Below, in pieces: positions 54,149 through 61,651 of a DNA stretch of 64,000 nucleotides (its first letter is position 1; each line of letters opens with the position of its first letter). The position numbers and the translations under genes are program-made. The DNA comes from a phage. Below the pieces are notes generated by a model that saw only the letters and a list, made by a program, of their open reading frames with translations, was not told the DNA's origin and did no database searches. Location of the stretch: assembly GCA_017822615.1 (NCBI GenBank), contig GCA_017822615.1_4530.1; one strand, 5' to 3'.

Positions 54149-56131
54149 TTAAGATCCTGAAGACTTAACCCATGTAAAGGTGTCTCCACGATAAATAACT
54201 TCGTATCCGAGAGTAGTGTCGAAATACTTTTGCCATGCGTAAGGCTGGCTAGGTCTATTGGCTGTAGTACCGCCTTCGTTTAGCCCGTAACTGAAGCGTC
54301 CGGTGCCGTTTGCGCTAAAGAACTCACCTCGCACGGTATCGATACTCCAAGTATTTAATAGCTTCTTGCAAATCATCTTACCTGTGGCAGTGCTACGCAC
54401 TTCAGTAGTACGCGCCTCCAACATATCAGTAAAGATGAAATTCATCTGATTGCCTGATGTGTTGTAGCAGGTAAATTGCATTTCATCTGTACCATAACCA
54501 GCCTGAATAGTTACGGCAATAGGCCTGGTTGCATTGGTATTACGCACCTCATTACACCAGCGCGAGTTAGTAACTGTACCTGATGCAGTGAACTCCTGGT
54601 ATATCTTAGAGTTCGTGCGAATGCCTGCTGCTGCCGGGTTATGAATCTCAGGGTAAGTAAACTTACTACGGTCATACGTTATGTTGTTGAAAGTATAATT
54701 GCCGACATCTCCCGATATATTGTTTGTAATGGCAATAGGGTGAGTAAGCGTAGTACTACGGTTAATGATGTTTAGGTTATCAATTGTGATACCACCTGCA
54801 GTACCCCCTGCATAGTTATTGTAAATACCAATAGCTACACCATACGGGGAACTGGTATCACCTACCTGGTTACAGTTCAAACTTGTCATATTACGGATAT
54901 GGAACTTACAATCATCTCGCCACTTAACAGTTTGCAGTTCCTGATTCTTACTGTTACGCCCATAAACGGAATCAATAGTAATATTGCCGGACACGCCCCC
55001 GTCACCACGGATTTCTATACAACGTTGGCATCCAATAGATGATACGGACCCTACGGTAACGTTTATAGGTTGTGATACACCAGTAAGTTGGTGTACTGCA
55101 AACAGGAGTGCAGGCCCAGCGTTATTAACACCTCGTACAGAACCTATTACTAAATCAATGATAAATTCAGAAGATACGTCAGGCTCCACGTCAATAGTAG
55201 CCCACGGACCTGCCGAAGCTCCTTGAATACTAACTCCTACACTATCTTCGATATATAAACCACGGCATGAGATAACACTTATACCTTGTCTACGAGAACG
55301 GGTGTATACACCAGTACCGGTAATTGCACCTCCGTACTGTTGGTCGTCGTTAACGAACCAAAGGATACTATCGCCCCAACAATAACTGATGTTTGGTGAA
55401 TCAATCACAAGGTTGCTACTGTTGAAGTTGCGAATACCATAACCCCATTCACCTGTAGTCCCTGTATGTGTTTCAACATCACCAACAATAACAGGGTTAA
55501 TTATTTTTGAGTTATGAGCATAGTAAGCGTCTATGATGACATATCGCCCTGATTCTACTGCATCCATTTTTAAAGACGCACCAGCAGAAAATTCGATGTC
55601 TATATTTTGGCGGGTCATTCTCAGCCCCATAGGATATGTTTCACTCCTGACAGGGTCCAAAGTATCCACGAGAACAATTCTATGCTCTCCTGGCGGAATG
55701 GTTACTTTATTAGGGGTCAATTCATATGCGGTTTTCAGAAGAGGCATGATGTCGTCTCCGCTTTTTACAGCCCCCCAATTTCTTAAATCGTCGATATCAA
55801 ATCCATTAAGTAATCCAACGCACTGCCACGAGTCGTCAGGGGAGGAACCGGCACCTACAGTTATAGTGCCGTATTTGGGTGTGTAATAATAACCGTTTGT
55901 TGTGTTTTTTAGAGCTGATACACCCTCAGTTGCGCTTCCTCCTGATAAGAAAGATCCTTCAGACTTAACTAATTGGAGTGGTTTTAGTGTATTATTAGCC
56001 CAGCTTCCAACCGTGTCAGTAAGAAAGTTGGAAACTGTGCTTTTAACAGTCTTATCAGGTTGGTCTAAAACCAGGTAATCAGAACCATTAACTTTTGATG
56101 TTTCGGGTAAATTAGTAATTGTAGTTGACAT
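54149..56131 (-). CDS. tailspike-like protein with beta-helix signatures
   Basis: 660 aa; IDLVIGSVRGVNN...INVTVGSVSSIG...ITIDSVYGRN repeats. Confidence 0.5.
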   Translation of the reverse strand: MSTTITNLPETSKVNGSDYLVLDQPDKTVKSTVSNFLTDTVGSWANNTLKPLQLVKSEGSFLSGGSATEGVSALKNTTNGYYYTPKYGTITVGAGSSPDDSWQCVGLLNGFDIDDLRNWGAVKSGDDIMPLLKTAYELTPNKVTIPPGEHRIVLVDTLDPVRSETYPMGLRMTRQNIDIEFSAGASLKMDAVESGRYVIIDAYYAHNSKIINPVIVGDVETHTGTTGEWGYGIRNFNSSNLVIDSPNISYCWGDSILWFVNDDQQYGGAITGTGVYTRSRRQGISVISCRGLYIEDSVGVSIQGASAGPWATIDVEPDVSSEFIIDLVIGSVRGVNNAGPALLFAVHQLTGVSQPINVTVGSVSSIGCQRCIEIRGDGGVSGNITIDSVYGRNSKNQELQTVKWRDDCKFHIRNMTSLNCNQVGDTSSPYGVAIGIYNNYAGGTAGGITIDNLNIINRSTTLTHPIAITNNISGDVGNYTFNNITYDRSKFTYPEIHNPAAAGIRTNSKIYQEFTASGTVTNSRWCNEVRNTNATRPIAVTIQAGYGTDEMQFTCYNTSGNQMNFIFTDMLEARTTEVRSTATGKMICKKLLNTWSIDTVRGEFFSANGTGRFSYGLNEGGTTANRPSQPYAWQKYFDTTLGYEVIYRGDTFTWVKSSGS

Positions 56132-56139
56132 TTTTACTC

Positions 56140-58293
56140 CTATATATAAAATTTTTGTGTTGTTACCAAATCTTCTCCAGATTTAGTAGCTAATGTAATT
56201 CCACTTATGGTAGCAATCTCAACATTTGCTTGTTTAAGAGTGATATCTTGCAAATAACAATTCAAAGGCACATTACCCATATAGAAAACTTGGGATTGAG
56301 AATTAACTACCGTGATGGAATCATGCATTATTTGAGGATAGGCCCATATATATTGTGTAAGCCCATTGAACTTATTGGCGTTCAACACTATATTACCTAT
56401 AATCATCTTCCAAAGATATGTGCGGTAGTTTGATTTAGGATCAAAGCCATACAAAGGTGCAAGAGTAGCATCTGGAACAAAACCTGAAAGGTAGTGAATA
56501 TCAGAATATTCAAAACCTAATTTTTCATGTGGTATAGTAATTGCATCAAATGCTTTCATCATCTTACCTTCCAGAAGCCAGTCATAACACTCTGAACAGT
56601 AAAAATCAAAAGCTTCAGGAATGTAGTAATCAGACGGGAAGTTAACTTTCTCCATCAAACCGTTGCCGATAATTGATGGCAAGAACGGAAGCAATGTTAC
56701 CTTGGCTCCTGGGTAAGTTGCTCTAGTATCTGTTGCAAACTTTGTAACTCTTAATCCTAGTTTACGAGACAAAAATGCATAATATTCGTCAAACGGCGTT
56801 CCTGTTTTATAATTATCTATTGTTCCTGCATCTTGTGCAAATAAACCTGTTTCTGTGTTGAATGCCAGTTTGGTAGTGTAATCATATATGCAAGGCATTT
56901 TACTTGCTGTATTATACCACCACCAAGGCTCACCAATTTGAATGACAACTGGAATATTATTAGCTTGCGAAATAGATGCTATTTTATTAATAACATTTTG
57001 CAAATATTCCATACCTTCGTCAATAGTTGGAGACAACACATAACTAGGAGGTTCATACCCTGTTGCTGCAAGAGCATCGTTCCAATCATGCTGGACCCAT
57101 TCTACAGGACAAACTGTGCTCATCAATTCAAAACTTAAAGAGTTCATTATTGTGTAGCCCTTCTCGTTTGCTATAGAATGGAAGCTGTTAAGCCAAGCTT
57201 CTGTAGCCGGATTCAGGAAAACAGATTTATTTAAAGCCCAAGATGTTCCATTCCATGAGAACTCATAATAGTGAGACATTCCGTTATAATGGTTAATCAT
57301 CCCACGATAACCTAGTGCATATGTATTATAAATAACTCTCTCTGGAGTCAGGTTATACATATCATCATAAGATGTGCACATGCGAATATCATGTTCAGGC
57401 TGGACAAGGTTGCTGACTTTCATCATACTGTAACCAGAGGTAGGTTCAAGAAGAGTGAAAGTAAACCAAGCCTCTTGACTGTCAATAGGTACAACCTCTT
57501 CTATTTCTTCATACCTTGCTGTAATCAAAGAGAAGAAAATATTATCTACAGCACTCATATCCAAAGGAATATCATTATTAGGGCCAGAAAAGATATTACC
57601 AAAATCTAACTTGATTGTAGCTGTTTTACCATCTTCTGAAATATCTGAAGCGTAGAATCCTAAACTGACATAATGAACACTTTTATCCAGGAGAGTTACA
57701 GTCAAAGTCGGCACCAAAGGTTCTTCTTTAAAACCTGGCATGTTTTGACTAATTTCCATTTTAAACCAAAGTTTCTCTGAACTTAAATCTGTGTGGGGTA
57801 AATACCCAACACCTTTATGGTCATATTTGTCAACTGTGCTCCAGATAACCCCTGCCAAACCTGCTGTTGTTCTGTTTACAAATCTTGCAGTAAAAGAGTC
57901 TCCATGAGATACAATAGAACAACTTTCCGTTGCTTGAGAATCTATTGTCCAATACATAGGAGAGAACATTTTAACGTCTTTTGTAGTCCAAGTTATTGGA
58001 GTAGTATTTTCTTGGATAGTAGTTATAATACAATTGATGGTTGTTTCAACCATCATGTTATTTTGACTAATCCCTGAAACTTGGAGGGAGAAGTTAAGAT
58101 CTATTGAGTTCTTTGGTCGTTCAAATACTTCAACCACAATGGTAGCAGAATCAGCATCATCAGGGAACACAAGTGTTCCCGATTTTGCAATATAATCTCT
58201 ACCAGCGACTGCTGTTCCATCAACAGTCGTGTAGTTAAATGAACTCGCATTTACTCTCTTGTCTCGCGTGACAGTAAATATAGCTTGTTTCAT
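56140..58293 (-). CDS. large structural/tail-associated protein
   Basis: 717 aa, aromatic-rich, within structural operon. Confidence 0.4.
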   Translation of the reverse strand: MKQAIFTVTRDKRVNASSFNYTTVDGTAVAGRDYIAKSGTLVFPDDADSATIVVEVFERPKNSIDLNFSLQVSGISQNNMMVETTINCIITTIQENTTPITWTTKDVKMFSPMYWTIDSQATESCSIVSHGDSFTARFVNRTTAGLAGVIWSTVDKYDHKGVGYLPHTDLSSEKLWFKMEISQNMPGFKEEPLVPTLTVTLLDKSVHYVSLGFYASDISEDGKTATIKLDFGNIFSGPNNDIPLDMSAVDNIFFSLITARYEEIEEVVPIDSQEAWFTFTLLEPTSGYSMMKVSNLVQPEHDIRMCTSYDDMYNLTPERVIYNTYALGYRGMINHYNGMSHYYEFSWNGTSWALNKSVFLNPATEAWLNSFHSIANEKGYTIMNSLSFELMSTVCPVEWVQHDWNDALAATGYEPPSYVLSPTIDEGMEYLQNVINKIASISQANNIPVVIQIGEPWWWYNTASKMPCIYDYTTKLAFNTETGLFAQDAGTIDNYKTGTPFDEYYAFLSRKLGLRVTKFATDTRATYPGAKVTLLPFLPSIIGNGLMEKVNFPSDYYIPEAFDFYCSECYDWLLEGKMMKAFDAITIPHEKLGFEYSDIHYLSGFVPDATLAPLYGFDPKSNYRTYLWKMIIGNIVLNANKFNGLTQYIWAYPQIMHDSITVVNSQSQVFYMGNVPLNCYLQDITLKQANVEIATISGITLATKSGEDLVTTQKFYI

Positions 58294-58301
58294 TTTACCC
58301 C

Positions 58302-61178
58302 TTACTCGGTAACGTCCACACTAATGTTTGCCATTGTCAAAACAGTAAGTGCAGGAATATTGCTCGAATCCAAAACAGGTAATGCATTTTGGGGATTAAG
58401 TTTTTTGTATAAGGCATACAACCCAAAACCACGTAACAACTCTCCGGCGTGGAAGCCAAAGAAGACTCCGTTATCACTGTCTGGTCTAGGAGCAGCACTC
58501 CAACAACCATTCATAACGTGATTAGGACCAAGAACAATATAATTTTCCTGAATAAGTTCAAAACAGCGATCTGCTACTATTTTAATGTTAGGAATTTCTG
58601 AATCATATCCAGCCATCCCCATTATAGCACATCCCGCCATAAAGAGCGCAGACATGTGACTTGTAAAGTCATCTACAGGCGCAGCCACTTCTCCGTTGGG
58701 ATAAAATATTGTTGGTGTTCTTCCTTCGTTGTTATCTTGGAACCACTTCAGATAATTGATCCAGTTTTTACAAACTGTTAAAAGTTTTGCAGGAACTTCT
58801 GCTCCTCGTTGCTTCAGTTCGTATACTGTATGACACGCACAGAAGAATGCTCGTGCTTCATAACCATCCCAAGCTTTATCGTTCCAATGATACATTGTGA
58901 ACTCATTCTTGTTTCCATATTTATGAGCATCCCAACGATCCCAAACATAAGCTTGTGCCATTGGCCCAGGCATCACAGGGGCAAACTTATTATAAAACCA
59001 CATTTGTGAATCATATAAAAAGTCTATACTGTTGTTCATACGAACCCAGTCAATATCTCTCCCTTTAAAACAATATAAGGATGGGTATTGATAACCTGGG
59101 TAAGGAATACCACGCCAACCATCATACAATGCTGTGTTAGGATCACTAATATTGGAAAATGGAATGATTCCTGGAGTATAATTCAAACTATCAAGTTTGT
59201 AGTCCAGTATCGTACAATCTCCAAGTTTTGCTGTATAAGGCTTTTCAGACGAAACTGTAACCCTGAAGTACATTGTGTAGTCATCGCCAGTGGCTGAAGA
59301 ATACAAAGATGGGATATCGTTAACGCAATAAAAGTCGATTGCCCCTGTCAAACCATTTGCAGGTTCAGAATCCAATGCAATGTTAATCTGATCAACAGTA
59401 GTCAGGTTTATTGACGAAGGTTTTGTCTCTGTGTCATTGTGATTAGGTTGCCAAGTACTTAATTTGAAATCAGCAGGACTTAAAGCTTTAGTAACCCATG
59501 CAGAATTTGTTTTTTCTAACATGGCCCACCATCTCCAACCTGCGGAATCCGTAATAGTGATGTTAAAATCATCTGCGTATGAACGATACGTAATAGATTT
59601 TAAATTGGTTGTTTTAGTTGGTGTTAACCAAAACCCAATAGTAAAACCACCATCTGAATCCATATTAGCAGAAACTATCTGATCACTATTTGTCCCAGCA
59701 ATACCAGTTGCATATTTATATTGTATCACAGTATTGCTTCCCCAGTCAACAATGATTCTAGGTTCAGCAATAATATATACACCACCTCCAGGAGGTTCAG
59801 TGCGCATAAAACTGGATAAAGGTATATCCATCTTAGTCATATTAGCTGCACCAAGAGGTAAGCCACAACGATATGTCACTGTGTCTGTTTCACTCTTAGT
59901 CTTGCTTAATTCTAACTCTGGACGGAAAAGAACACCTTCCCCTGCATCATCTACGCCTTGAAACTCAATACGCAGTTTTGAATTCTGATCCACTCTGAAC
60001 CAAACTGCTTGTTGTTCTAGAGTTGTTTGTGCTGCAACATCTTGGCGAATTACTGTGTATCCTAACTCGTCACGAGAATATTTAGGTATTGCTGTAGATG
60101 GGTATGAGTAATCATACGAGATACCATCTGTAAAAGGAATTATTGCTGTCGTAGATCTACGGAAGAATTTATCAAACATATCGATGTTTGAGTAGTCTTG
60201 ACACAACAATAAAGAAGATTGCCAGCAAAGCCAGTATTTTCTCTCTCCTGTGATTTGATACATCAAGTAGTTTGCATCACACCACCACGTTTCAGCATCG
60301 GAAGCATTATCTTGATAACCTAACTCTACCGGAACGTTTACAGGACGGTTATGCCACATCTCATTACGCTTAAGCAGATATCCACCGTGTTCTACAGGAT
60401 TGCATGTAGCGTAGTTGAATTTATAGTCCCCGTTCACAGAAGCATTTTTAAGTTGCACTGTTCCATATTCTGCGAAGCTGTGCCCTGTAGATAAAATGTT
60501 ACCGTCCCAATCAACTTTACGTCCTAGACGATCTATAATCCATTCAACGTCCCACTGATCTCCATATTCTTTCCAGTTGGTTGAACCATCTGGGTTAGTT
60601 GCATAAACTGTTGCGTTAACGGAGTTCCAACCAAGATTGCCATTGAAAGCAAACCAAGCTTTATCTAAGTATTCCCCCCAATGCGGTGCACCTTTAGGAA
60701 TAACAGTCCTTCCGTTAATCCAAGTCATCATGCTACCTTTGAACCCGCCGTGCGTAGGATACCCATCATCTGTGAGAGGGTAATGTGCTAAACGTGGTTC
60801 TTTACCATTGATGATCCAGTTGGGACGATATTTAGCTGGAGGATCAGGAATAGGTTGGCCCCCGAAGAAGTGATCTATATAGGCTTGCCAATACTTCTCG
60901 GCAGATTCAAGATATTTTTTATCCCCTGTAGCCAAATATGCATAAGCAAAACCAGTGATAAGCACAGATTGACCTTCGGTAGTAGCGTCACCGTTTGGTT
61001 GCCCTTCCTGCGCTGTCCAGTTAATAAAGTGTCTGTTGTTCGCCAATACGTTTTGTGGGTTGATAATGTAATGCTGAACCGTAGGATCTATGGTAAGCCC
61101 AGTATTTCTTTCCAAAAACTGAACCAACCCTTCAATCAACTGAAACGTGTTGTCAATATTGTGCTTAACTCTTGACAT
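58302..61178 (-). CDS. large tail-associated protein, Trp/Tyr-rich (possible carbohydrate-active domain)
   Basis: 958 aa with many W/Y and acidic residues; no motif assigned. Confidence 0.35.
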   Translation of the reverse strand: MSRVKHNIDNTFQLIEGLVQFLERNTGLTIDPTVQHYIINPQNVLANNRHFINWTAQEGQPNGDATTEGQSVLITGFAYAYLATGDKKYLESAEKYWQAYIDHFFGGQPIPDPPAKYRPNWIINGKEPRLAHYPLTDDGYPTHGGFKGSMMTWINGRTVIPKGAPHWGEYLDKAWFAFNGNLGWNSVNATVYATNPDGSTNWKEYGDQWDVEWIIDRLGRKVDWDGNILSTGHSFAEYGTVQLKNASVNGDYKFNYATCNPVEHGGYLLKRNEMWHNRPVNVPVELGYQDNASDAETWWCDANYLMYQITGERKYWLCWQSSLLLCQDYSNIDMFDKFFRRSTTAIIPFTDGISYDYSYPSTAIPKYSRDELGYTVIRQDVAAQTTLEQQAVWFRVDQNSKLRIEFQGVDDAGEGVLFRPELELSKTKSETDTVTYRCGLPLGAANMTKMDIPLSSFMRTEPPGGGVYIIAEPRIIVDWGSNTVIQYKYATGIAGTNSDQIVSANMDSDGGFTIGFWLTPTKTTNLKSITYRSYADDFNITITDSAGWRWWAMLEKTNSAWVTKALSPADFKLSTWQPNHNDTETKPSSINLTTVDQINIALDSEPANGLTGAIDFYCVNDIPSLYSSATGDDYTMYFRVTVSSEKPYTAKLGDCTILDYKLDSLNYTPGIIPFSNISDPNTALYDGWRGIPYPGYQYPSLYCFKGRDIDWVRMNNSIDFLYDSQMWFYNKFAPVMPGPMAQAYVWDRWDAHKYGNKNEFTMYHWNDKAWDGYEARAFFCACHTVYELKQRGAEVPAKLLTVCKNWINYLKWFQDNNEGRTPTIFYPNGEVAAPVDDFTSHMSALFMAGCAIMGMAGYDSEIPNIKIVADRCFELIQENYIVLGPNHVMNGCWSAAPRPDSDNGVFFGFHAGELLRGFGLYALYKKLNPQNALPVLDSSNIPALTVLTMANISVDVTE

Positions 61179-61651
61179 TAAATAACTCCTGCTAAAACTA
61201 AGCTACCTGTCCAAGTTGCTCCATTATCATAACTGATAAACTCAAAAGTGTCTGTTGCACCTTGACGATAACTCAAAACTGGGGAACGACCAAAACTCCA
61301 TTTTACAGAAGAAGGCCATACGACTTTATTTGCACCACTTCCTTGACGCAAAGCTAAAGTAAAGTTTAAAACTGCATTTGTTGCTACTGGAATATTAGTA
61401 AAACTAATTGTGCACGTTGCAGAAGATAAAGTTGCTGAAAAATATTCTGCCGAACTAATATCTAATGCTAGGGTGCTAGTTACTGTTCCCCGTGCATTCA
61501 GACGGTTTCTAGTTACCCCTGCACCACTCAACAGCACTTTCAAAGAAGTTTTCTTTGTTATTCCAGCCTGATCTGTTACAAAGAAATCTGTATCAGACAC
61601 AGAGGTTGTTTGGGTAAGATCAGAAACTTTGATCGTAGTTAAATCTGCCAT
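61178..61651 (-). CDS. structural protein
   Basis: 157 aa, S/T-rich beta-type composition. Confidence 0.4.
   Translation of the reverse strand: MADLTTIKVSDLTQTTSVSDTDFFVTDQAGITKKTSLKVLLSGAGVTRNRLNARGTVTSTLALDISSAEYFSATLSSATCTISFTNIPVATNAVLNFTLALRQGSGANKVVWPSSVKWSFGRSPVLSYRQGATDTFEFISYDNGATWTGSLVLAGVI

Follow-up and report, generated by a model that had tools for sequence, protein, structure and literature searches.

In our preferred reading, the 958-residue protein encoded within the baseplate module of this phage is an adaptor-attached tail appendage with the fold of a sugar-cutting enzyme and a putative role in glycan cleavage; we give this reading a probability of about 60%. The (alpha/alpha)6 six-hairpin barrel of sugar-cutting enzymes was predicted with high confidence in a structure model, and the jelly-roll modules of its larger insert look like carbohydrate-binding modules. 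The protein would thus be a virion-borne, glycosidase-like tail appendage, the activity being putative.

The glycosidase idea is well supported but already known for orthologues and not new here, since close relatives have been labelled putative glycosidases. Gp141 of phage phi92 is listed as 'Glycosidase' in Table 1 of PMC5380687, which cites Schwarzer 2012, and the 83%-identical orthologue of BASEL phage EmilieFrey (bas61_0025) is annotated 'lateral tail fiber protein with several glycosidase domains'. The likeness to phi92 gp141 and its Stephanstirmvirinae orthologues amounts to about 83% identity over all 958 residues for the Justusliebigvirus copies. Our contribution is to spell out the split (alpha/alpha)6 architecture, to define a set of conserved residues and to describe the family-wide pairing with an adaptor; otherwise nothing essential differs from gp141.

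Gene, genomic setting and composition

The window, i.e. the whole 64-kb stretch of DNA analysed, belongs to a Phapecoctavirus, a myophage of E. coli. The open reading frame lies exactly where it had been predicted, at 58302-61178, and comprises 958 codons and a stop codon with ATG as start; we add that it is on the minus strand. The peptide quoted from it at the time, WWCDANYLMYQITGERKYWLCWQSS, was found at residues 298-322. A ribosome-binding site precedes the ATG, which shares one base with the stop codon of the upstream gene in a TAATG junction. This is a genuine gene and not a chance reading frame, since full-length homologues are present in 534 phage records; with tblastn, 521 phage records reached at least 80% query coverage. 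The features are collected in Table 1.

Table 1. Features of the six-hairpin protein gene and its two neighbours in the window.
Feature	Position	Strand	Remarks
Six-hairpin tail protein gene, 958 aa, phi92 gp141 type	58302..61178	minus	stop codon 58302-58304; ORF list and translation
Adaptor gene, 157 aa, phi92 gp140 type	61178..61651	minus	PHROG 9017
Downstream partner gene, 717 aa, phi92 gp142 type	56140..58293	minus	Calx-beta, NCTSP_N, TIM barrel (N4 gp64/gp65 kind)
Ribosome-binding site AGGAG	61186..61190	minus	7 nt before ATG; direct reading of the sequence
Barrel segment 1, aa 1-112	60843..61178	minus	DSSP helices 3-24, 67-84, 87-104; TTEGQS motif with E68, codon 60975-60977
Beta-rich insert 1, aa 113-285, between barrel helices	60324..60842	minus	model strands 122-276
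Barrel segment 2, aa 286-335	60174..60323	minus	helices 293-310, 313-330; NASDAETWW with D294; contains WWCDANYLMYQITGERKYWLCWQSS (60213-60287)
Beta-sandwich block, aa 336-690	59109..60173	minus	aa 354-658 all strand by DSSP
Mobile CBM-like module, about aa 478-630	59289-59747	minus	within the beta-sandwich block; D544, GWRWW
Barrel segment 3, aa 691-929	58392..59108	minus	six long helices; conserved D750, W770, R776, H841, E913
C-terminal tail, aa 930-958	58305..58391	minus	low-confidence model, pLDDT about 31-33

The placement of the gene inside the baseplate module proved correct. Genes for the hub, the central spike and a gp25-like sheath initiator lie upstream, and Baseplate_J and gpI-like wedge genes downstream, so that the gene stands between the sheath initiator and adaptor genes on one side and the Baseplate_J gene on the other. 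The order hub, spike, sheath initiator, gp140-type adaptor, gp141, gp142 is common to the window, phi92 and EmilieFrey.

The original prediction had started from a composition rich in tryptophan, tyrosine and acidic residues, which we compared with that of the 29 other likely genes of the window. The tryptophan part stood clearly (3.5% against 1.5%, binomial P = 4e-6) and the tyrosine part mildly (5.9% against 4.4%, P = 0.013). The acidic part failed as an enrichment, because aspartate and glutamate together made up 11.3% of the protein as compared with 12.0% in the other genes. Phenylalanine was not enriched relative to these genes, and the aromatic residues combined reached 13.9% against 9.9% (P = 4e-5). 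The contrast that had been drawn with glycine-rich fibres nearby was borne out, with 7.5% glycine in the protein and 10-13.5% in the neighbouring fibre-like reading frames of 660, 1017, 674 and 891 residues.

Predicted fold and conserved residues

No match to the protein was found by sequence in Pfam, NCBIfam or, with phmmer, the PDB, and its natural barrel-only homologues matched nothing in Pfam. The structure model (pLDDT 89.3, pTM 0.84; secondary structure by DSSP) predicted a closed barrel in which about 12 helices pair up as six hairpins. This barrel is assembled from three separate stretches, residues 1-112, 286-335 and 691-929, between which two beta-rich inserts are placed; the first of these is missing in barrel-only homologues of 450-540 residues. 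A profile of the barrel alone, searched against the PDB, matched six-hairpin enzymes, led by 6ex6 (E = 5.6e-6) and followed by GH76, cellobiose 2-epimerase and GH88. A right-handed parallel beta-helix catalytic domain was absent from the model.

In Foldseek, the check that had been suggested for the predicted structure, the beta insert matched CBM11 with a probability of 1.0 (target TM 0.52-0.56) and CBM22 with about 0.8. D544, W548 and W550 (in GWRWW) were invariant in this block, which had no match to a CBM family at the sequence level. The CBM-like module is present in duplicate in the homologues P0063 and P0100, and PHROG 23426 matches residues 498-624. At the level of the fold, the suspected carbohydrate-binding or glycoside-hydrolase character is thus supported.

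Conservation of residues was assessed in 77 family representatives with identities down to about 21%. E68 was kept in 92% of them, D294 in 92%, D750 in 90%, R776 in 95% and E913 in 88%; Q70 and W298 were each kept in at least 90% and H841 in 79%. Counted together with W770, most of these residues are found where every other barrel helix begins or immediately ahead of that point, E68 and D294 being at helix starts by DSSP on the model. From this position relative to the helices we infer that they cluster in one pocket. The four acidic residues E68, D294, D750 and E913 were retained together in 64 of the 77 representatives; seven of the remaining 13 differ at a single one of the four sites, and about six divergent lineages at three or four.

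These numbers bear on a non-catalytic reading, in which the protein would be a scaffold or lectin. It would form a conserved hub in the structure of the lateral fibre network, connecting the baseplate adaptor with receptor-binding parts that are distal and exchangeable, and any action on sugar would be limited to binding. We consider this unlikely, although several observations speak for it. In several lineages E68, D294, D750 and E913, the putative catalytic residues, have been replaced, yet both protein and adaptor are retained. However, joint retention of the four acids over very long divergence is hard to explain through folding needs alone, and the conserved residues sit within motifs that resemble the catalytic motifs of GH8. 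Scaffold and enzyme roles are, moreover, not mutually exclusive.

The GH8 motifs deserve a closer description. GH8 and other inverting (alpha/alpha)6 hydrolases, such as E. coli BcsZ, C. thermocellum CelA and CPF_2247 (PDB 3ren), share about 9-14% identity with the protein. They are secreted or periplasmic enzymes, in contrast to a phage tail protein whose barrel is interrupted by beta domains of about 530 inserted residues. We built a GH8 profile from nine sequences, E. coli BcsZ and eight plasmid-borne GH8 genes. Its best profile-profile alignment with the barrel was collinear over 294 columns but not significant (probability 1.7%, P = 0.03), and hhalign against BcsZ itself gave a probability of 0.1%. 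In the same register of this non-significant alignment, TTEGQS with E68 coincided with TSEGQS of BcsZ, and NASDAE.W with D294 coincided with SASDGD.W, which carries BcsZ D116. E55 in the BcsZ motif TSEGQS is the catalytic acid, and D243 the catalytic base. The position of D243 fell on non-acidic residues around C780-C782, in a low-confidence part of the alignment; D750 or E913 could serve as base in its place. Membership in GH8 was not supported: neither the protein nor its barrel-only homologues matched PF01270, and the profile alignment was not significant despite the coinciding motifs.

For GH76 alpha-1,6-mannanases, a local alignment with CtGH76 paired ATDDTGWW (ATDNTGWW in the variant structure 9r4p) with NASDAE.WF, at a non-significant i-E-value of 21-33. 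The adjacent Asp-Asp pair of GH76 is the catalytic dyad, with which the D-to-N variant 9r4p agrees. In the tail protein the pair reads S-D-A-E, and the retention of only its first Asp would speak against GH76 membership.

The same fold could also serve another chemistry on a host glycan, as a polysaccharide lyase, a sugar epimerase or isomerase, or an unsaturated-uronyl hydrolase. The PDB matches to cellobiose 2-epimerase and GH88 that suggest it rest, however, on the generic helix-hairpin repeat and not on active-site motifs. Six-hairpin epimerases use a pair of histidines where only H841 is fairly conserved here, an isomerase would have no obvious use on a virion, and the substrates of GH88 and GH105 are products of lyases, none of which was identified in the module. 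We therefore hold this option to be improbable.

Adaptor pairing and attachment to the virion

A gene with the adaptor C-domain lay directly upstream of the six-hairpin gene in all six contexts compared (the window, A24, phiR8-01, FV3, SB18 and L017), which include a barrel-only homologue of about 25% identity. The conserved domain occupies the C-terminal 100 or so residues of the adaptor, and the N-termini are specific to the virion. Between the copy in the window and the proteins encoded upstream in the podophages A24 and phiR8-01, the domain shows 43% identity; its alignment has 19 invariant columns, and its HMM matched the gene that precedes the distant homologue P0194 (E = 4e-18). In the Autographivirus phiR8-01, the adaptor and barrel pair occupies the slot of the T7 gp17 tail fibre, the adaptor carrying the N-domain of the T7 tail fibre (E = 5.6e-9), and the adaptor of FV3 carries a Tail_spike_N domain. 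The sole exception seen is a direct fusion in a P2-like prophage, in which barrel and baseplate protein gpI form one protein, encoded immediately after gpV, gpW and gpJ. The N-terminal extensions of about 275 residues in P0136, P0142 and P0144 were considered as fused adaptors and discarded; they provide no Rosetta-stone evidence, because the adaptor C-domain HMM gave no match to them.

Gene order, adaptor domains and natural fusions suggest that the protein is located on the virion, the N-terminus of the adaptor-type attachment presumably plugging into the particle. Many homologues continue into varied C-terminal extensions (NCTSP plus TIM barrel, Gly_rich_2 or uncharacterised) to give proteins of 1400-1650 residues. 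Such diversity has the look of a proximal fibre segment and speaks for the scaffold or lectin described above. On the other side, the pair of phiR8-01 comprises apparently the only tail-fibre-like genes of that phage, and no gene for a distal partner is adjacent.

The mode of attachment also bears on the possibility that the protein is a peptidoglycan hydrolase used in penetration, which would explain its conservation across phages of many Gram-negative hosts. Identities of about 45% across diverse hosts, lower in Vibrio phages, do suggest a common target. The attachment resembles that of fibres and spikes, however (a T7 fibre slot, a gpI fusion, an adaptor with a tailspike N-domain), and not the central spike or tape measure on which wall hydrolases are found, and an internal core protein of phiR8-01 already has a lytic transglycosylase. 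We give this option very little credence.

The 717-residue protein encoded downstream (Pfam E = 3e-79; PDB 9lc0, Gp64, E = 3.5e-30) is homologous to gp64 and part of gp65 of phage N4, which belong to the non-contractile tail sheath and the NGR/NfrA-binding apparatus, whereas the six-hairpin protein itself has no similarity to N4 proteins; N4-like phages were not among the six-hairpin matches listed. The gp142 type has been proposed as an NGR receptor-binding protein (bioRxiv 10.64898/2026.04.02.716166). In P0106, a six-hairpin protein, NCTSP_N and a TIM barrel form one natural fusion, which suggests that both proteins may act in a single glycan-targeting appendage. NCTSP_N begins there at residue 969, directly after the barrel, so that the C-terminal tail of the 958-residue protein matches the position of the linker. 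The two gene types are not neighbours in rV5-like phages, a point against the preferred reading.

Returning to the reading as an appendage with a sugar-cutting fold, we infer pocket geometry, hydrolysis and substrate as follows. The conserved residues would occupy the positions that form the substrate pocket in six-hairpin enzymes. On the cell surface, a polysaccharide chain would be bound by the jelly rolls and cut in the pocket; acid/base hydrolysis of the GH8 kind, in which E68 donates the proton, would be the most likely mechanism. Cutting of the glycan may help the baseplate to travel through the glycan layer to the outer membrane. In this phage group, the protein probably shares one appendage with the downstream TIM-barrel protein of the phi92 gp142/N4 gp65 kind, a kind that has been linked to the NGR exopolysaccharide.

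Distribution and comparison with known systems

PHROG 2871 ('tail protein') matches residues 1-957 with E = 0. The protein is 99.9% identical to that of Escherichia phage Mt1B1_P17; identity is about 83% for Justusliebigvirus and 35% for Vequintavirus. Identities of about 45% were seen in phages and prophages of Enterobacterales, Pseudomonas, Stenotrophomonas, Psychrosphaera, Spongiibacter and marine bacteria, and lower ones in Vibrio phages. The family matches in phages of about 85 kb are Kolesnikvirus, and a tblastn search with the distant homologue P0179 gained only 121Q-like jumbo phages.

Between genera, the protein is 83% identical, as compared with 80-87% for core baseplate proteins, and nearby genes for true receptor-binding proteins are swapped: in EmilieFrey the 660-residue gene is absent and the 1017-residue gene matches only at its N-terminus. 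Both points are in line with the non-catalytic scaffold or lectin, as is the phi92 study, in which both fibre II and an 'arm-like scaffold' within fibre I are left without an assigned protein.

In the 2026 phi92 cryo-EM study, one fibre and part of another are left unassigned, the authors screened fibre-shaped models only, and gp141 is neither placed nor mentioned. For these densities, the gp141-type protein, which is conserved, enzyme-like, not fibrous and equipped with an adaptor of its own, is a concrete candidate. The rV5 proteomics text does not include gp42 among the proteins it lists, and the sections covered of the cryo-EM paper on Bas63 (Felixounavirus) describe no homologue.

As a tentative extension, possible but rather doubtful, the gp141 type may constitute a distinct (alpha/alpha)6 glycan-active family with GH8-like motifs that has no Pfam or NCBIfam model. 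Adaptor and enzyme would then form a portable two-gene appendage, used in myophage baseplates, in the tails of T7-like and other podophages, in jumbo phages and in P2-like prophages. In phi92-like phages, gp140-gp141-gp142 would be fibre II or the proximal arm of fibre I and process a conserved exopolysaccharide such as NGR, not a strain-specific capsule or O-antigen.

The proposed role, a virion-borne glycan enzyme on a modular N-terminal or separate adaptor, is that of the trimeric beta-helix tailspike depolymerases (P22 tailspike, K1F endosialidase, phi92 gp143 and gp150), and the Tail_spike_N domain of the FV3 adaptor is a domain of such tailspikes. In contrast to them, the six-hairpin protein is an alpha/alpha barrel with jelly rolls and no beta-helix, and it is conserved, not host-variable. 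If active, it would stand for a second class of virion-borne glycan enzymes, different in architecture from the beta-helix tailspikes. The way in which rV5-, phAPEC8- and phi92-like phages, whose very broad host range makes them popular candidates for therapy, pass the glycan layer could then also be approached through a protein that is conserved and not specific to strains.

Two candidate relatives were dropped. A link to the flagellum-binding Gp047 of Campylobacter phages was abandoned, because the 'Campylobacter phage' matches turned out to be genomes of the rV5-like type, at 35% identity just like Vequintavirus. The capsule depolymerase gp02 of Vibrio phage HH109 has a pectin-lyase fold and is unrelated. 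Against the preferred reading, the degree of conservation (83% between genera and about 45% across distant hosts) is at least as compatible with a structural role as with an enzyme specific to a host.

Position and surroundings of the gene

We read the 958-aa protein, with a probability of roughly 60%, as a baseplate-tethered glycan-binding, probably glycan-cleaving appendage protein built on a six-hairpin, i.e. (alpha/alpha)6, barrel. The gene was found at the coordinates originally proposed for it, on the minus strand (table). The start codon shares one base with the stop of the gene before it and lies 7 nt after an AGGAG. The window derives from a Phapecoctavirus (Stephanstirmvirinae), an E. 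coli myophage of ~150 kb, and the protein is 99.9% and 99.4% identical to the copies in phages Mt1B1_P17 and anhysbys. By position and identity it is the orthologue of phi92 gp141. It shares 83% identity with the Justusliebigvirus orthologue, core baseplate proteins reach 80-87% in the same comparison, and of the 1017-aa gene the N-terminus alone is common to both. The copy in Justusliebigvirus phage ESCO9 is likewise 83% identical, and gp141 of such phages is >97% identical to phi92 gp141 (PMC10269720).

Composition was tested against 29 other likely genes of the window. The predicted richness in Trp, Tyr and acidic residues held for Trp (3.5% vs 1.5%, P=4e-6) and Tyr (5.9% vs 4.4%, P=0.013), but not for Asp+Glu (11.3% vs 12.0%). 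The protein did differ from its fibre-like neighbours, as had been noted, with 7.5% Gly against 10-13.5%.

In the direction of transcription the genes encode the baseplate hub (293 aa), the central spike (244 aa), a gp25-like sheath initiator (208 aa), a 157-aa 'tail fiber protein' (phi92 gp140 type, here called the adaptor), the 958-aa protein, a 717-aa protein, a 660-aa protein, an 80-aa protein, a Baseplate_J wedge (495 aa), a gpI-like wedge (209 aa) and a short tail fibre with its chaperone. The gene thus lies inside the baseplate module, as predicted.

The 717-aa protein, of phi92 gp142 type, is related to N4 gp64 (E=3.5e-30) and also matches ~75 residues of the N4 non-contractile sheath protein. 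This type was proposed as the NGR exopolysaccharide receptor-binding protein of Vequintavirus and Justusliebigvirus (2026 preprint, bioRxiv 10.64898/2026.04.02.716166). A natural fusion of 1557 aa (P0106) joins a six-hairpin protein to NCTSP_N and a TIM barrel; in other six-hairpin homologues the C-terminus is extended by a Gly_rich_2 domain or by sequence of unknown kind. A partnership between the 717-aa and 958-aa proteins would not be general, since the two genes, adjacent in the window, lie apart in rV5-like phages and Goslar. The 660-aa gene looks like an exchangeable tailspike cassette within an otherwise conserved baseplate operon, because no counterpart was found in Justusliebigvirus EmilieFrey.

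Coordinates of the features discussed (window unless a locus is named)
Feature	Position	Strand	Remarks
958-aa gene	58302-61178	minus	ATG start, 958 codons + stop
Beta-sandwich module of the 958-aa protein	59289-59747 (aa ~478-630)	minus	GWRWW motif; invariant D544, W548, W550
717-aa gene, phi92 gp142 type	56140-58293	minus	Calx-beta, NCTSP_N, TIM barrel
660-aa Gly/Ser-rich gene	54149-56131	minus	Position where phi92 has endosialidase gp143
gpI-barrel fusion, 1097 aa	L018 7001-10294		P2-like prophage, ENA metagenome; Tail_P2_I (aa 6-142) + complete six-hairpin protein
Barrel-only homologue P0194	L017 2491-4104		Adjoins lysis genes
Adaptor-domain gene	L017 1867-2487		Directly upstream of P0194

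Fold and conserved residues

An AlphaFold2 model from a 79-sequence alignment was confident (pLDDT 89.3, pTM 0.84), being poor at the ends and in one loop only. It places eleven long helices in three blocks (aa 3-104, 293-330 and 711-927), with a beta-rich insert (~aa 113-285) between the first two and a large all-beta block (~aa 336-690) between the last two; in the model the three blocks assemble into a complete six-hairpin barrel. Natural homologues of 450-540 aa span query positions 1-924 without inserts, which makes the barrel the ancestral unit and the beta domains insertions. Both inserts are absent from P0192, P0194, P0213 and P0261. The module at aa ~478-630 is duplicated in two homologues (P0063 and P0100) and, on its own, forms the C-terminal part of another tail protein (P0193; PHROG 23426); it behaves as a mobile unit.

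The family profile, and more clearly the barrel-only profile, matched six-hairpin enzymes in the PDB, best 6ex6 (E=5.6e-6), then GH76, cellobiose 2-epimerase and GH88. These matches run through a hairpin repeat, Y-x-A-T-G-D-x-x-Y-L, one copy of which is the very peptide (aa 298-322) quoted in the original prediction. In a Foldseek search with the predicted structure, suggested there as a check, the insert matched jelly rolls of CBM11 and CBM22. The fold proposed from composition, carbohydrate-binding or glycoside hydrolase-like, is supported, and the protein belongs to the six-hairpin structural superfamily.

Among 77 cluster representatives, with identities down to ~21%, the query residue was kept in >=90% of sequences at ~28 positions only. 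Conservation was 95% for R776, 92% for E68 and D294, 90% for D750, 88% for E913, 79% for H841 and at least 90% for Q70, W298 and W770. In the model these residues sit at or just before the N-terminal ends of alternate helices (67-84, 293-310, 773-790, 840-855), except E913, a few residues into the last helix. Such helix ends form the substrate cleft of six-hairpin enzymes, and by analogy the conserved residues would line it here. E68, D294, D750 and E913 were all kept in 64 of the 77; of the 13 that deviate, seven do so at one residue and about six very divergent lineages, where alignment error is possible, at three or four. Joint loss in these lineages would be expected if the four residues make up one functional site.

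E68 lies within TTEGQS and D294 within NASDAETWW, resembling TSEGQS (E55, the catalytic acid) and SASDGDVW (D116) of GH8, as compared on the retrieved sequence of E. coli BcsZ. Against a 9-sequence GH8 profile the barrel aligned with both motifs in register over 294 collinear columns, non-significantly (probability 1.7%, P=0.03); hhalign against BcsZ alone gave no match. The GH8 base has no clear counterpart in the non-significant profile alignment, and in a local alignment to GH76, likewise non-significant, D-A-E stands opposite the Asp-Asp pair. A putative acid/base pair is plausible from these motifs; the protein has demonstrable membership in no defined GH family, an independence that could grow into something. 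The main rival is that the protein serves the fibre network as a conserved scaffold or lectin without catalysis; we consider it rather unlikely beside the appendage reading, with which it is also compatible.

Distribution and attachment to the virion

A full-length homologue is present in 534 phage records, among them those of Phapecoctavirus, Justusliebigvirus and Seunavirus-like phages, 121Q-like and SPFM-like jumbo phages, Goslar, Vequintavirus (35% identity), Kolesnikvirus, Rosemountvirus-like 53-57-kb myophages, large Vibrio phages and the podophages Cronobacter A24, Salmonella 7-11, Yersinia phiR8-01 and ISAO8, and Vibrio G1. Others are found in Enterobacter, E. coli and Pseudomonas prophages and in marine bacteria. 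Just 189 clusters matched at E<1e-3 in a library of 1.84 billion cluster representatives, and no Pfam or NCBIfam model or PDB sequence matched the 958-aa protein.

The adaptor's C-terminal ~100 residues (Q-G-x-G-x-N-K-V-x-W-P...W...P.L...G..D...D.G..W.G) recur in five further contexts, each time in the protein encoded immediately upstream of the homologue. These are podophage A24, Autographivirus phiR8-01, Vequintavirus FV3, Kolesnikvirus SB18 and the metagenomic phage contig L017, whose barrel-only homologue shares ~25% identity (adaptor-domain HMM E=4e-18). Adaptor N-termini vary and match the virion type, with a T7 tail-fibre N-domain in phiR8-01 (E=5.6e-9) and Tail_spike_N in FV3 (E=3e-10). 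In phiR8-01 the adaptor-barrel pair occupies the T7 gp17 slot, between internal core proteins and lysis/terminase genes. In the P2-like prophage L018 the gpI-barrel fusion directly follows gpV, gpW and gpJ, without an adaptor, and the contig ends right after it; in P2 itself the tail-fibre genes come next after gpI. Adaptor pairing, virion-type N-termini, the gp17 slot and the gpI fusion make a peripheral, fibre-like attachment very likely. Since barrel-only homologues retain the adaptor, its C-domain may contact the barrel itself. The original suggestion of a possible virion-associated enzyme finds support in the fold and in the probable role. The portable adaptor-plus-barrel module across phage morphotypes could grow into something.

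A metagenomic protein of 293 aa (P0175) is 58% identical to the six-hairpin N-terminus over its first ~180 residues and continues into the adaptor C-domain (HMM E=8e-19); recombination, misassembly or genuine variation could each account for it.

Earlier descriptions and database records

The glycosidase idea is already known for this family, as orthologues carry that label: a review from 2017 (PMC5380687) tabulates both phi92 Gp141 and Gp142 as 'Glycosidase', with reference to Schwarzer et al. 2012, and the orthologue in BASEL phage EmilieFrey is annotated 'lateral tail fiber protein with several glycosidase domains'. The BASEL paper stressed conserved sugar-binding or glycan-hydrolysing domains at this locus and found it not clear which gene builds which fibre. 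Our literature search found no published description of a phage tail protein with a six-hairpin fold. The 2026 phi92 cryo-EM paper, which screened candidates picked for fibre-like shape, assigned gp135-139 and gp145-147, ascribed fibre I to gp143 and fibre III to gp147 by inference, named no protein for fibre II or for the arm of fibre I, and made no mention of gp141 or gp142. Proteins of the 958-aa type are candidates for these densities, and this candidacy could also grow into something.

Several 'Campylobacter phage' records of 128-143 kb (MG065635, MG065690, MG065655, MG065647, MG065661 and others) contain rV5-type six-hairpin and gp142-type genes with identities equal to those of E. coli Vequintavirus phages, and are probably mislabelled in host or name. 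KY608966 ('Escherichia phage CF2', 53 kb; locus L005), marked UNVERIFIED, is filed as Tequatrovirus; neither its size nor its six-hairpin gene, whose 42% identity resembles that of Rosemountvirus-type 52-57-kb phages, agrees with a T4-like phage.
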